From Promethearchaeota archaeon (lineage in GTDB: Archaea; Asgardarchaeota; Thorarchaeia; Thorarchaeales; Thorarchaeaceae), in the NCBI GenBank assembly GCA_048939765.1, contig JBHLPF010000017.1, positions 1 to 64,000 on the forward strand: a stretch of DNA of 64,000 bases. Direction: 5' to 3'. The notes beneath the pieces were generated by a model. The model was not told the origin of the DNA. It made no database searches and saw nothing but the letters and a program-made list of their open reading frames with translations. Shown one piece after another: positions 40,566 to 44,140 of the stretch. The position numbers were made by a program, and so were the translations under genes. Positions within the stretch are counted from its first letter, which is position 1, and each line of letters begins with the position of its first letter.

Positions 40566-42320
40566 CTATGGATTCTCGTCACTTGACTCGTCTTCTGTTT
40601 TGTCGTCGGAAGAAGTACCTAGAATCGAATCTATCTCGAAAATTGCGTCCAAGTCCACTGAAGCTATGTCGGCAGAGGCCTTTTCTTTTCTGGATGGTTC
40701 GAATACATCAAGAATCAAATCTAATTCTTTCTTCAAATCATCATCCAGTTCTTTATCGACTTCCTCTTCTTCTCCGTTTACCGGGAGAACTTCGTCGTGG
40801 GAGAATGCTTCTAATGCGGTTTCAAGATCTTCTTTCGATACCTTCTCAATCTCAGCACTGATGATTTCATCAGCTTCCAAAGCCTCAAAGATGAGATCAA
40901 TAGCCATTTGGCGCCCATTGTCCTCAACAACCATTTCCTCTGCTGGCGACTCCTCAGGAACAAACTCAATGTTCACTTGATCTCCCGCATGTGAGATTGG
41001 CTCAGCCTCGACTTCCACTATTCCCAGTTCTTCTTCAGATGGCTCAGAGGCTTCTCCAGGAATCTCTTCGTCCACAGCAACTTCAGCTGTGACGTCCTCA
41101 ACCATTTCCACGTCAGGGACTTCGTGAAGCTCCATTGCGAGTTCATCCTCAAATAGCTCTTCGGCTTCTGCTTCTTCCTCTTCCGCAGCTTCATCTTGTG
41201 CGGCTTCAATTGCCTCTGTTTCTTCAGGCTCAGTCTCCTGTGGCGCCGCTTCATCAATCTCCTCAACAACTTCTTCGATTACCTCGTATTCCTCTGCGTC
41301 CTCTATTATATGACCATCCTCGTCGACGAGAATCTCCTCAACTACCTCAACTTCTTCGTAGTCCTCATCCTCTTCGTGCAAACGCGCAGCCCTGGCCTCC
41401 ACTTCTGCGATGGCATCCTCAGTTGCTTCATCTGCAAATCTCAGCAGTTGTCTAGCAGGTAGGTCTGGTAAGGCAACACCAACATATGTTGCAGCAGCGT
41501 TCATCAGAATCCGTAGCATCTCATCCCGTCTGCTCTTATCTATCGCCACCATTGGATAGGTGGGAACTCCGAGGATTTTCTGTACAACTTCAGGTTTCAT
41601 CACATTGGGCTTGTCCTGCTTATTCGCGATTGCAAACAAAGGCACCTTAGGAGCATCCCTTCTAATCAGTTTGAGAATATCCTTGCTGATAATAACATTA
41701 CGAAGGGAAGAGTCGCATACCAAGAATATGACGTCCGCACCGTGGAAGTAGAAGCGCCATAGTTTTCTGAAACGTTCCTGGCCTGCAAAGTCCCACAAGA
41801 CCAGGGAGTAGTTCCCGAAACGGATATTCTCCACTGTTTCAAGATTTAGAGCGATTGTTGGTACATACTGGGTTGGTGGTGTGTCTCCTAGAAGCAAGTG
41901 CAGAGTAGTTGTCTTTCCAACACCGCCCTCACCAACTAGAGCTATTTTGAGTTTAGTTATGATTGATGATTCAATAATGAATTCGTACTCATTTATCATT
42001 GTCTGTAGTCCGGACTGGAGTATTCGGTTCTTGATGGCTATCGCTCCATCTCGCAGCTTATCTGTGATTGCTCGTTCATCCTCATGCGCATCTGTCACAT
42101 AGACCAGCAAGAGGTCTTCGACTACTTCGGTCGCCATGTACTTGTCTTCATCAATGACAAGTGGTAGCTCGGTGAAACTATCGGGAGAAGATTCCTGAAT
42201 CTCACTCCTCGTTCCTAGAAACTCACGAATCTCGCTTTCTGGAACATCTATTGGCCAATACTTCGAGCTCGCAAGAATTTGGCTTGTGGATATGCGTATC
42301 AGGTAGGTCTTGATGATCAA
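40566..42320 (-). CDS. Arf-like small GTPase with N-terminal longin-like domain and long acidic C-terminal tail
   Basis: GEGGVGKTT, YVPTIALN, WDFAGQERFRKLWRFYF, ANKQD; about 290-aa Glu/Asp-rich tail. Confidence 0.88.
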   Translation of the reverse strand: MIIKTYLIRISTSQILASSKYWPIDVPESEIREFLGTRSEIQESSPDSFTELPLVIDEDKYMATEVVEDLLLVYVTDAHEDERAITDKLRDGAIAIKNRILQSGLQTMINEYEFIIESSIITKLKIALVGEGGVGKTTTLHLLLGDTPPTQYVPTIALNLETVENIRFGNYSLVLWDFAGQERFRKLWRFYFHGADVIFLVCDSSLRNVIISKDILKLIRRDAPKVPLFAIANKQDKPNVMKPEVVQKILGVPTYPMVAIDKSRRDEMLRILMNAAATYVGVALPDLPARQLLRFADEATEDAIAEVEARAARLHEEDEDYEEVEVVEEILVDEDGHIIEDAEEYEVIEEVVEEIDEAAPQETEPEETEAIEAAQDEAAEEEEAEAEELFEDELAMELHEVPDVEMVEDVTAEVAVDEEIPGEASEPSEEELGIVEVEAEPISHAGDQVNIEFVPEESPAEEMVVEDNGRQMAIDLIFEALEADEIISAEIEKVSKEDLETALEAFSHDEVLPVNGEEEEVDKELDDDLKKELDLILDVFEPSRKEKASADIASVDLDAIFEIDSILGTSSDDKTEDESSDENP

Positions 42321-42471
42321 TTAGGTTTCACCATCTAATTGGCAAATCATGGTTTATTTCCGATACTAAGATTAGCTTCGAATGCTATTTTAAAGCATTC
42401 ACGGTCAACCCTTCGTATTTGGCATTATGTTGCCTTATACAGAATTCTAACGTGGCAGAAACAGATAGACT

Positions 42472-42720
42472 GTGTTGGGACGCAGAGGCTCGCCAGGCGA
42501 CCCTCCGCATCCGTCGGGCCTTCAGGCTGAACGCAGCGAAAATTCTCTTTGCGCAAGTATTGTTTGCAAGGGGATTCATCCTCTTGAAGCGCATGCTCCA
42601 AGAGTCCAATGCTAGAACTCGTAAGGGACCGTGTGTTGTGAATGCGAGTTCTTTTGACGGGGAAGTCGTGCGTTCCGCGACAAAGGCAGCCCACACCATA
42701 CGGTGCGGACCAACCGACAC
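42472..42720 (-). ncRNA. Candidate about 250-nt multi-hairpin structured RNA
   Basis: Hairpins 42689-42710, 42614-42652, 42581-42604 and 42478-42512; three rely on G-U pairs on the - strand; ends can pair. Confidence 0.55.
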
Positions 42721-42865
42721 CTTGATGCTGTAACATAAGAAGCTTTCTGGTTTCCGAAATAACGAATAGACGGTTCATGAACGGATAGTGGCCCCAAAAA
42801 AGGGTGTTTGACAGACCAGCATTTGCTGAGGGGTATAGAACATGAAGTGGATTACGAAACTCCGC

Positions 42866-44005
42866 CTATCGTGGAAAGTTGTCCCTCAGAAGTCGCAGAT
42901 GGTGATGAACCATCTCCATCGCCCTTGGATCATCAGGAGTCTTCTCCAGATCAGTGACCAATGTCTGGAGGAAGTACTCAGGGAAGAAGAGCCTTACACG
43001 AATATCGTTGAGAAGGAACAGCCATTTGTCATATTCACCGGATGCTCCCTTTCTTCTTCGTTCCGAAACCACTCGATACTTCTTCAAGGTTTGAATAGCC
43101 TGCTTTAGTTCCTTGGGAGGAATGCCAAGGGTGGCTTCGAGCTCGGAGATGTTTACGGGTCTACGCCTGAGCTCATTCAGAGTGTCGTAGCAGTCTGGAT
43201 CTGCAAGAATAGATGCTACGGATACGGTATCCTCAGGTGTCTTTTGCCATTCTGTAAGGAACTCAAGGACCTCTGACTTGTACTCCGCAGTGAGTTCGGG
43301 ATCAAGCACAGATCCTGCAGATTCCATTGCCAGCAACGGAGGAGCGCGAAACACCTCAAGATCCTTTATCATGAATACACAGGTTCGGCCGATTTCATCG
43401 ACCCATTCACTCTTTACAAGACCTAGCTCTTCGAATGGAGCGATGATTGAATCGACCGAAACGCTAGGTAGACCGGTAACCATCTTGAGCCATTCCTCAA
43501 GATCCTCTTTGGAGATGCCTCCCTTCCAGAGTTTTGGGAAGACCGCTCGTGAAATCTCATCCGAAAAGAGACGGGCAAGTCGTGACTCATCAGTCATGCC
43601 AGCCAGTCGAATAATCCGTCTGTATGTGTTGTCGAGCTCTGTCTTGAGCTCTGCATCAGTCATCGCAACAACAGCATTCGTTAGCGGGGATACAATTGAA
43701 GTAATTGCAGCCTCGTAGACCTTAGGATCTTCAGAGGGGGTCAGTAGCAAACTGATACAGTATTGCTCCTCCTCTCTTACAATCCCAGTATAGTAGGAGG
43801 CTACATTGTATTCTTCTCCTCCAATGCGAACACTGAGGGATGAGAAACCAGCTGTGGCGTCACCCATAGCGTGCGAGGTGAATATTCTCATGATCTCGGT
43901 GTTCAAGTCTTCTCGGTAATAGTCCGCGAAGTCGGCTGGAACCTTGGCCTTCAGCACTGCGCCAATTTTACTGTCCCAGTCGATCAAGAGCATGGCAACG
44001 GGCAT
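42866..44005 (-). CDS. Longin/uDENN-like domain protein with C-terminal winged helix
   Basis: N-terminal LLIDWDSKIGAVLKAKVP (uDENN/longin-type hairpin), QYCISLLL strand; C-terminal ISELEATLG...AIQTLKKYRVV. Confidence 0.6.
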   Translation of the reverse strand: MPVAMLLIDWDSKIGAVLKAKVPADFADYYREDLNTEIMRIFTSHAMGDATAGFSSLSVRIGGEEYNVASYYTGIVREEEQYCISLLLTPSEDPKVYEAAITSIVSPLTNAVVAMTDAELKTELDNTYRRIIRLAGMTDESRLARLFSDEISRAVFPKLWKGGISKEDLEEWLKMVTGLPSVSVDSIIAPFEELGLVKSEWVDEIGRTCVFMIKDLEVFRAPPLLAMESAGSVLDPELTAEYKSEVLEFLTEWQKTPEDTVSVASILADPDCYDTLNELRRRPVNISELEATLGIPPKELKQAIQTLKKYRVVSERRRKGASGEYDKWLFLLNDIRVRLFFPEYFLQTLVTDLEKTPDDPRAMEMVHHHLRLLRDNFPR

Positions 44006-44140
44006 CTTTCTATCTCCGGTCCCTGTATAGACTGGTCTATAGGAGCTAGTCTGAGACGTTCAACGGTGAGTGCCTAAAAAAGCTTGTCACTAGATGCTCC
44101 GCATAACCCTATGGGGCTCCCTTTTGGAGCCATTTGGACC

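Follow-up and report, generated by a model that had tools for sequence, protein, structure and literature searches.

Between the gene for a conserved 379-residue protein (called up379 below) and a gene for an Arf-like GTPase, the window (the whole stretch of 64,000 nucleotides of a Promethearchaeota archaeon analyzed here) has an intergenic region in which a large RNA with several hairpins can be drawn on the minus strand, at positions 42472–42720. Is this RNA a part of one of the two neighboring messengers or a gene of its own, does it belong to a known class, and what could it do in the cell? The original prediction, made from the letters of the window, had left the choice between an undescribed large noncoding RNA and a regulatory leader. 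To our knowledge, almost nothing is known about the noncoding RNAs of Asgard archaea beyond the universal ones.

An RNA gene on the minus strand

The elements of the locus are, in the order of transcription:

42866–44005, minus strand: up379, a 379-aa longin + winged-helix protein (NPRL2/NPRL3-like), the proposed regulated gene
42796–42801, minus strand: T6 run after up379, a likely archaeal terminator
42734–42749, minus strand: BRE/TATA-like putative promoter, CAGAAAGCUUCUUAUG
42475–42711, minus strand: RNA gene of about 240 nt (from the abrupt end of conservation, the match to the covariance model R1, the z-score of the fold and T-runs)
40566–42320, minus strand: Arf-like GTPase gene (584 aa)

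The region 42472–42720 is a genuine structured noncoding RNA gene, uncatalogued and in single copy. The sequences and helices quoted in the original prediction are all present there on the minus strand. The minus-strand RNA folds with –105 kcal/mol (z = –4.72), and none of 200 shuffled sequences is as stable; for the plus strand, the z-score is –2.59. The covariance model R1, built from 15 sequences of the genus and used throughout (it misses the most divergent genera), matches 42471–42730 at 277 bits. The choice of the minus strand had been based on G-U pairs, which would be A-C on the opposite strand, and it is fixed by these pairs together with the promoter-like element and the matches of the model.

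When the alignment is read from up379 downstream, a strongly conserved block of about 240 nt follows the promoter-like block. Conservation within the genus breaks off sharply at 42475 and, beyond that point, the species of the genus are completely different. The spacing from the TATA-like element would place the 5′ end of the RNA at about 42711, the first base of the 5′ hairpin described below. For the 3′ end, the probable range extends from the base of the terminal hairpin (42478) to a weak T-run at about 42460, or to about 42455 at most; T-runs occur 4–18 nt past the terminal hairpin in most homologs. We infer from the sequences that the RNA is expressed, and likewise the ends and the level of the transcript.

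The promoter-like block (family consensus ACYAGRAAG-NUUC-WUAUG) is conserved directly upstream in all genera, with the BRE/TATA-like element 22–27 nt before the RNA. It resembles the TATA-like elements found before the RNase P RNA and before up379, and it would function as the promoter of the RNA. Further upstream, the T6 run is conserved in the genus as TTTTTT(G); the spacer between up379 and this run varies, with indels that are not multiples of three.

The gap between up379 and the Arf-like gene measures 545 nt, the RNA inside it is on the same strand as both genes, and the whole family shares the gene order tmk–up379–RNA–Arf-like–ssb-like–deoxyribosyltransferase–EamA. Such an arrangement would suit a cis-acting element, which could belong to up379 as a structured 3′UTR or to the Arf-like GTPase gene as a 5′ leader or riboswitch. 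Since the whole gene order is kept, however, adjacency alone says little. The RNA has its own conserved promoter-like element, and the T-run parts it from up379. In addition, insertions separate it from one neighbor or the other: 1.2 kb lie between up379 and the RNA in L028, and the distance to the Arf-like gene grows to 2.4 kb in L029 and L044 and to 1.1 kb in L032. In these four cases, the promoter-like block is still found directly upstream of the RNA and has thus moved with it. Toward the Arf-like gene, conservation stops about 155 nt before the start codon, and what follows is not the same from one species of the genus to another. Because it has its own promoter-like element and can be parted by insertions from either neighbor, the RNA is neither a leader nor a 3′UTR, and we consider a cis-acting role very improbable. 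Of the two options first proposed, the leader is thereby dropped (own promoter-like element, up to 2.4 kb from the Arf-like gene), and the noncoding RNA is retained (conserved, covarying, noncoding, absent from Rfam, and about 240 nt long).

A small protein gene, or an extension of up379 by read-through of its TAG stop codon, was also considered. There are ORFs of 104–117 aa in three frames over the region, and, past the TAG, the reading frame of up379 stays open for 147 codons. But the stop codon is TAA in several relatives, and the spacer that follows it cannot be aligned and has indels of lengths not divisible by three, so that read-through by pyrrolysine or otherwise is rejected. Within the element, the variable columns are distributed over the three codon phases as 38/36/37, that is, without periodicity; pairwise indels in the core are mostly of 1–2 nt (66 of 71); peptide segments switch frames between homologs; and the ORFs over the element have no Pfam matches. 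The overlapping ORFs are not conserved as frames, and the original prediction was right to read them as noncoding. The probability left to a coding function is next to nil, and the coding and cis-element readings are both close to excluded.

Distribution in Thorarchaeota

By BLAST, the element is detected in 14 of the 16 genomes of the genus, and its core hairpin also in three other genera; its orientation with respect to up379 never changes. In an exact-pattern scan with one genome per prokaryotic species, 27 contigs were retrieved; 26 are Asgard MAGs, nearly all labeled Thorarchaeota, and the remaining match, in Adlercreutzia, is ascribed to chance. Model R1 recovers full-length matches of 38–297 bits in all 26 Asgard contigs. 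Over the class, 65 of 87 genomes have a single copy by this model, and they belong to 13 of 17 genera; there is none in 124 genomes from 26 other Asgard families. Of the four genera missed by R1, three (g2, g27, and g29) have divergent copies directly downstream of the up379 ortholog. In g10, which belongs to a sister family, there is no RNA at the position downstream of the up379 ortholog. The sequences thus indicate an RNA kept across one family of Thorarchaeota.

Secondary structure

In the consensus structure (RNAalifold), a long-range helix closes a multi-helix junction, and a terminal hairpin comes after it at the 3′ end. The elements are, from 5′ to 3′:

42688–42711, minus strand: 5′ hairpin GGUCCGCACC-GUAU-GGUGUGGGC, genus-specific, with compensatory changes in the genus
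42667–42694, minus strand: 5′ strand of the long-range closing helix P1 (RNAalifold consensus)
42614–42652, minus strand: hairpin A, stem AGAACUCG/CGAGUUCU and conserved 23-nt loop (42644–42622), the most conserved core
42581–42604, minus strand: hairpin B CUCUUGGAGC-AUGC-GCUUCAAGAG, genus-specific
42552–42568, minus strand: hairpin C (UGCAA...UUGCG), which includes the conserved ACUUGCGCA (consensus)
42537–42544, minus strand: U-rich single-stranded tract AAUUUUCG
42513–42536, minus strand: 3′ strand of P1 (consensus, covariation)
42478–42512, minus strand: 3′ terminal hairpin GGAUGCGGAGGGUCGC-CUG-GCGAGCCUCUGCGUCC, with the invariant ACGGAUGCGG before it (covariation)

In the alignment of 27 sequences to the model, 94.7% of the cells are paired and 33 of 65 pairs are changed on both sides, in an alignment that is itself fitted to the model and with a count of double changes that ignores phylogeny. 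In 500 shuffles, none of the five measures is ever equaled, and at most nine double-changed pairs are obtained with slid controls. Independent minimum free energy folds give the same architecture.

Helix P1 (42694–42667 with 42536–42513; helices 3–5 of the model) has 16 of 18 pairs changed on both sides. In its inner segment, compensatory changes occur in nine of nine pairs, and this long-range helix replaces the local GUCG/CGAC pairing drawn in the original prediction. Four other helices drawn there are confirmed by comparison. In the 5′ hairpin (GUCCGCACC/GGUGUGGGC), which is specific to the genus, CACC/GGUG is replaced by CCCC/GGGG; this hairpin is absent in two species (G003 and G016), and other genera carry different 5′ structures. 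The helix AGAACUCG/CGAGUUCU is the stem of hairpin A (42652–42645 with 42621–42614, inside the junction) and has comparative support. Hairpin A is the sole part that BLAST finds in other genera, and in two genera outside the model its stem is fully swapped with compensation (AACCUGU/ACAGGUU in g29 and CAGAGGCUU/GAAGCCUCUG in g2). The helix CUCUUGGAGC/GCUUCAAGAG of hairpin B is again genus-specific, with a U-A pair changed into C-G; its 5′ strand takes the place of a sequence, UUGGUCCCC, that is present in other genera (box 2 below). In hairpin C, there are one-sided changes only, none of them compensatory. The terminal hairpin (GGAUGCGGAGG/CCUCUGCGUCC; helices 11–12 of the model) is supported by comparison, with 10 of 15 pairs changed on both sides.

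An alternative CCGUC/GACGG pairing links two invariant segments and, hence, no covariation signal is possible for it. The helix GUGUCGG/CCAACAC, thought at first to close the whole structure and the sole candidate for a BHB-type pairing of the flanks, is not kept in relatives, and its 5′ strand is upstream of the presumed transcription start. The tract just before the 3′ strand of P1 is U-rich in all genera and might, at a guess, bind an Sm-like protein.

Comparison with known RNA classes

A search against Rfam, which the original prediction had called for, matched no family: Over the whole window, the only match at gathering score is a tRNA, and at E ≤ 10 nothing is found in 42200–43000. The family is a new one, with no entry in the known catalogues. 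Archaeal SRP RNA (RF01857) and archaeal RNase P RNA (RF00373) share with the element a length of 240–340 nt, a multi-helix fold, the single copy, and the type of TATA-like promoter. Both are encoded elsewhere in this genome: The SRP RNA is on contig C12 (26313–26623, full length, 87.9 bits) and the RNase P RNA on contig C46 (115653–115990, 163 bits). The element matches neither model, with no SRP RNA match in 42200–43000 and no RNase P RNA match to the element, in either case even at E ≤ 10. The two identities are ruled out, in agreement with the motif inspection reported in the original prediction.

Other classes were rejected on their own features. For a C/D box sRNA or a U3-like RNA, C (RUGAUGA) and D (CUGA) boxes forming a K-turn should be conserved; the C-box candidate GGAUGAAU is confined to the genus of the window, the D-box candidate CUGA at 42523–42520 becomes UUGA or CUAA in relatives, and the snoRNA matches in 42200–43000 at E ≤ 10 are all below threshold and outside the element. 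For an H/ACA sRNA, the terminal hairpin should contain a pseudouridylation pocket and be followed by ANA 14–16 nt from it; it is an uninterrupted 11-bp stem, and the tail past it is variable (CAACA, AAAUU, or CCCCU). The segment UAGCAUUGGUCCCCUUGCAA presumably resembles, locally, the AGC/ISL region of U6. No match to U6 snRNA (RF00026) is found at E ≤ 5–10 in the window or in six divergent homologs, and the AAAGAGA of the element, similar to ACAGAGA, is not conserved. The abrupt 3′ end of conservation called to mind the omega-RNAs of TnpB/IscB; this was rejected, with up379 having no transposase or nuclease domains and the locus being syntenic and not mobile.

GGUCCC boxes and the up379 leader

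In 13 representative RNAs, GGUCCC is the most over-represented 6-mer (28 occurrences observed vs. 1.1 expected), and nine of the 13 RNAs contain two to four copies of it. The two sites to be compared in this genome are:

42624–42631, minus strand: box 1, CGGUCCCU, in the loop of hairpin A, the sole perfect GGUCCC box of the RNA of this genome
44014–44024, minus strand: proposed target site in the up379 5′UTR, AGGGACC (44024–44018) followed by the Shine–Dalgarno sequence GGAG (44017–44014)

The probability that box 1 is unpaired is 0.77 here and 0.5–0.9 in most homologs; the mean is 0.37 here and 0.40 in that comparison. In other genera, box 2 (UUGGUCCCC) comes after hairpin A; in the genus of the window, it is degenerate and merged into the stem of hairpin B.

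The up379 leader has the sequence AGGGACC-GGAG-N8-AUG (44024–44003, with the start codon at 44005–44003). In about 12 of 16 genera, GGGAC(C/U) adjoins the Shine–Dalgarno sequence of up379. The last residue of the site differs between genera, with GGGACU in g5 and g8. Boxes with the sequence AGUCCC occur in seven of the 15 genomes with a GGGACU site and in none of the 29 with a GGGACC site (one-sided Fisher p ∼2 × 10⁻⁴, computed by hand and without correction for relatedness). The G-to-A change in the box appears, from the sequences, to have arisen about three times (in a subclade of g5, in genome G066, and in a hairpin inserted in g8). GGUCCC still pairs with GGGACU through a G-U pair, whereas AGUCCC would leave a mismatch with GGGACC, which is the same asymmetry as that seen in the genomes. 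The boxes and the messenger site are thus conserved, complementary, and covarying. In this genome, box 1 and 44024–44017 are predicted to form a duplex of 8 bp (–16.6 kcal/mol); in the g5 subclade, the predicted duplex has 11 contiguous base pairs and runs through the Shine–Dalgarno sequence (–18.6 kcal/mol).

The pairing core has only 6–8 bp in most genera, and with an RNA of 245 nt and a leader of 75 nt, a match as short as this should arise by chance in any one genome; for this reason, the support for the pairing is purely comparative. The most likely function, to which we give about even odds, is that of a trans-acting regulator that controls translation of the neighboring up379 by base-pairing. 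The stand-alone gene on the minus strand would be transcribed from its own BRE/TATA-like promoter into a folded RNA of about 240 nt. The scaffold would expose one to four unpaired (G/A)GUCCC boxes, with one perfect box in this genome, and a box would pair with the GGGAC(C/U) located directly beside the Shine–Dalgarno sequence of up379. The ribosome-binding site would then be covered or occluded, and translation of up379 most probably lowered. Presumptions in this scheme are the occurrence of the pairing in vivo, the sign of its effect (repression or activation), and the contribution of the scaffold.

Searches for further targets were negative. Throughout this genome, GGGACC is not enriched beside Shine–Dalgarno sequences (5–6 sites vs. 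5.2–5.9 for permuted controls), and a wider GGGACC regulon is rejected. Among long antisense matches, the best have 13–15 nt, which is the chance level. The global energies of RNAduplex between the RNA and leaders are uninformative, with long spurious duplexes and z about 0. One paralog of up379 (on contig C38) has a GGGACC some 70 nt before it, which is not kept in two other genomes.

Two resemblances of the box sequence were set aside. The 3′ acceptor strand of tRNA-Arg reads CGGUCCC, and nothing further supports a link with tRNA mimicry. The segment CCGGUCCCG is contained in site 2 of human ITS1, a cleavage site of RNase MRP (PMC13184271), which is taken as a coincidence.

Similarities and differences with regulatory RNAs

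In RsaE, RNAIII, and LhrC, unpaired UCCC motifs bind G-rich Shine–Dalgarno regions and block initiation (PMC2790875, PMC4132741). The proposed regulator has in common with these and other UCCC sRNAs of Firmicutes (SprD, FsrA; same references) several unpaired C-rich motifs in loops or linkers facing a G-rich site at the ribosome-binding region, redundant sites in each RNA, and the same proposed outcome, a block of initiation. The bacterial RNAs belong to another domain of life, without sequence or structural homology. The thorarchaeal RNA is two to three times larger, with a junction of several helices closed by a long-range helix. It carries the 6-mer GGUCCC as its box, with a predicted pairing beside the Shine–Dalgarno sequence (overlap of 1–2 nt), whereas the UCCC motifs of Firmicutes pair with the Shine–Dalgarno sequence itself. 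Further, its single evident conserved target is the neighboring gene, and it is known here from sequence alone.

Closer in phylogeny, sRNA41 of Methanosarcina mazei is thought to mask ribosome-binding sites (PMC5867862). Like the thorarchaeal RNA, it is archaeal and intergenic, with a proposed role as a repressor pairing with ribosome-binding sites; it is independently transcribed, as the thorarchaeal RNA is predicted to be. The two are not homologous. The RNA sRNA41 is present at the level of the species and has several sites in polycistronic mRNAs, whereas the thorarchaeal RNA is family-wide, with strong structural covariation and a fixed synteny with its candidate target.

The proposed pairing leaves unexplained the multi-helix scaffold, the invariant segments CCCCGUC and ACGGAUGCGG, and the U-tract. 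Besides, four genera (g4, g24, g27, and g29) have the RNA and no GGGAC box in the up379 leader, so that up379 is not the sole reason why the RNA is kept; most of these four genera retain GGUCCC boxes. Such persistence would be natural if the RNA were a scaffold or sponge for proteins, or a subunit of an RNP, with the GGUCCC boxes, the U-tract, and the invariant segments as protein sites (for an Sm-like protein, a KH-type binder of C-rich sequences, or the winged-helix domains of the neighboring protein). The complementarity to the up379 leader would then be secondary or coincidental. One to four copies of a single 6-mer per RNA are reminiscent of the sponges CsrB and RsmY, where a short motif is also repeated at exposed positions of a structured scaffold; seed pairing requires neither so large a conserved architecture nor unpaired segments that are invariant; and a single copy throughout the family is what one expects from a housekeeping RNP component. 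However, the motif of CsrB and RsmY is GGA and not GGUCCC, and CsrA is not an archaeal protein. We know of no protein that recognizes GGUCCC, and the analysis yielded no candidate protein. With one perfect copy left in the genus of the window, the basis for a sponge is weak there. A pure protein site fails to predict that the G-to-A change in the box is confined to genomes with a U in the messenger site. Protein binding as the primary function is accordingly possible and, in our judgment, rather doubtful.

A ribozyme, or an RNA that belongs to a processing or modification machine particular to this lineage, could also have such a size, a junction of several helices, strong covariation, a number of unpaired segments that do not vary, and single-copy conservation throughout the family; the junction, CCCCGUC, and ACGGAUGCGG would then be the active or recognition site. 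However, much of the RNA (the 5′ hairpin, hairpin B, and the inserts of the terminal hairpin) is freely replaced between genera, unlike a catalytic core. The RNA is limited to one family, has no similarity to any ribozyme or RNP RNA of Rfam, and is devoid of C/D and H/ACA features. A catalytic or machine-bound RNA is, on these grounds, decidedly improbable.

The candidate target up379

The base-pairing regulator proposed above would act on a "eukaryotic signature" gene that ranks among the most conserved of its kind in these genomes and adjoins a longin-Arf-like GTPase. Across genera, up379 has 85%–94% amino acid identity, vs. about 60% for the adjacent thymidylate kinase. No Pfam family is found above threshold in up379, with weak winged-helix matches only (residues 267–333), and the nearest clusters in the ESM Atlas are Asgard hypothetical proteins only. 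With an alignment of eight sequences, the AlphaFold (AF2) model has a pLDDT of 83 and a pTM of 0.72 (pLDDT of 39.5 from the single sequence). In the model, an N-terminal longin-like alpha/beta domain is followed by two winged-helix-like modules. The recurrent full-length matches in Foldseek are to the NPRL2/NPRL3 chains of GATOR1 and of the SEA complex, FLCN/FNIP, Fuzzy–Inturned, and DENND1B. The E-values are modest (10⁻⁴ to 10⁻²), and the TM-scores are low because of the domain arrangement. The gene upstream of the RNA had been described at first as DENN-like; from the predicted structure and the Foldseek matches, NPRL2/NPRL3-like (longin and winged helices) fits better. It is a reasonable label at the level of the predicted fold, short of demonstrated orthology.

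If the pairing is correct, archaeal relatives of GATOR1/Rag-type GTPase regulators would be under post-transcriptional control by an RNA. The family gives a concrete and testable sRNA–target pair in organisms that are not yet amenable to genetics. If the pairing fails, the prokaryotes most closely related to eukaryotes still have here a structured and conserved RNA that awaits assignment. One could imagine, further, that the RNA is a sensor of a protein or a small molecule, or that it is a subunit of a complex with its NPRL2/NPRL3-like neighbor, coupling a signal to translation of the GATOR1-like GTPase-regulator module. This extension is unlikely, in our estimate; were it true, small-GTPase signaling of a proto-eukaryotic kind would be controlled at the RNA level in Asgard archaea, without known counterpart in eukaryotes or bacteria. 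Two or three paralogs of up379 are present per genome, with 24%–28% identity.

The longin/winged-helix protein and its leader

Two features on the minus strand lie upstream of the RNA:
42866-44005 (-), gene of the 379-residue longin/winged-helix protein (up379)
44006-44090 (-), up379 leader

Between genera of the family Thorarchaeaceae, the protein is 85-94% identical (the adjacent thymidylate kinase, about 60%). No Pfam family was found for it, and its AF2 model (pLDDT 83) has fold-level matches that point to the longin proteins NPRL2/NPRL3, SEA-complex, FLCN and DENN. Each genome carries two to three paralogs, with 24-28% identity.

At about 60 nt, the leader is longer than is usual in archaea; a conserved promoter-like sequence, GUGACAAGCUUUUUUAGG, precedes it. 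In several single-sequence folds, the Shine-Dalgarno GGAG can pair with a (G)CUCC that lies 35-45 nt upstream and is conserved. Such a pairing would possibly form a hairpin sequestering the Shine-Dalgarno sequence, with GGGACC (the proposed pairing site beside it, complementary to the GGUCCC box of the RNA) left in a bulge; the alifold consensus for this hairpin is not convincing.

Complementarity between leader and RNA

In genus g29 (loci L079 in genome G093 and L080 in G095), GGGACC is absent from the up379 leader. There, a leader segment (UUCGUACG in G093, UUCGUAGG in G095) shows 8 bp of complementarity to an RNA segment just 5′ of hairpin A (CGUACGAA or CCUACGAA), and the species difference between G093 and G095 within this match is mirrored in both molecules. 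The complementarity may nonetheless be due to chance, because this stretch of the RNA also belongs to an extended stem of hairpin A.

GGGACC occurs also about 70 nt upstream of an up379 paralog in the genome of the window (contig C38, 3299-4429, minus strand). In G095 and G025, the orthologs of this paralog have no such GGGACC upstream, so that its occurrence here is probably fortuitous.

Reading frames, flanks and U-rich tract of the RNA

Three features on the minus strand concern the RNA gene itself:
42425-42868 (-), 147 sense codons after the TAG stop of up379, in the same frame
42537-42544 (-), U-rich single-stranded tract of the RNA
42750-42775 (-), upstream block UUCGUUAUUUCGGAAACC

Two further open frames, of more than 100 residues each, overlap the RNA. 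Homologs do not preserve the reading frame of the stop-free stretch across the RNA, and the open frames look like a by-product of the composition of the RNA.

The block UUCGUUAUUUCGGAAACC, conserved in most genera, lies directly upstream of the BRE/TATA-like element of the RNA and could be a transcription-factor site controlling it. In some genera, insertions of 1.1-2.4 kb set the RNA apart from up379 or from the Arf-like gene (loci L028, L029, L044 and L032, which belong to other genomes).

All genera keep the U-rich tract (AAUUUUCG, GAUUUCUUCC or CAUUUUUG in the window and homologs), which immediately precedes the 3′ strand of the closing helix. With helices on either side, it resembles a possible Sm-type site.

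SRP RNA of the genome

For the SRP RNA of the same genome (contig C12, 26313-26623), the match to the archaeal SRP model is full-length and scores 87.9 bits. This score falls below the Rfam gathering threshold of that model (96.5 bits), so that default annotation would miss thorarchaeal SRP RNAs.
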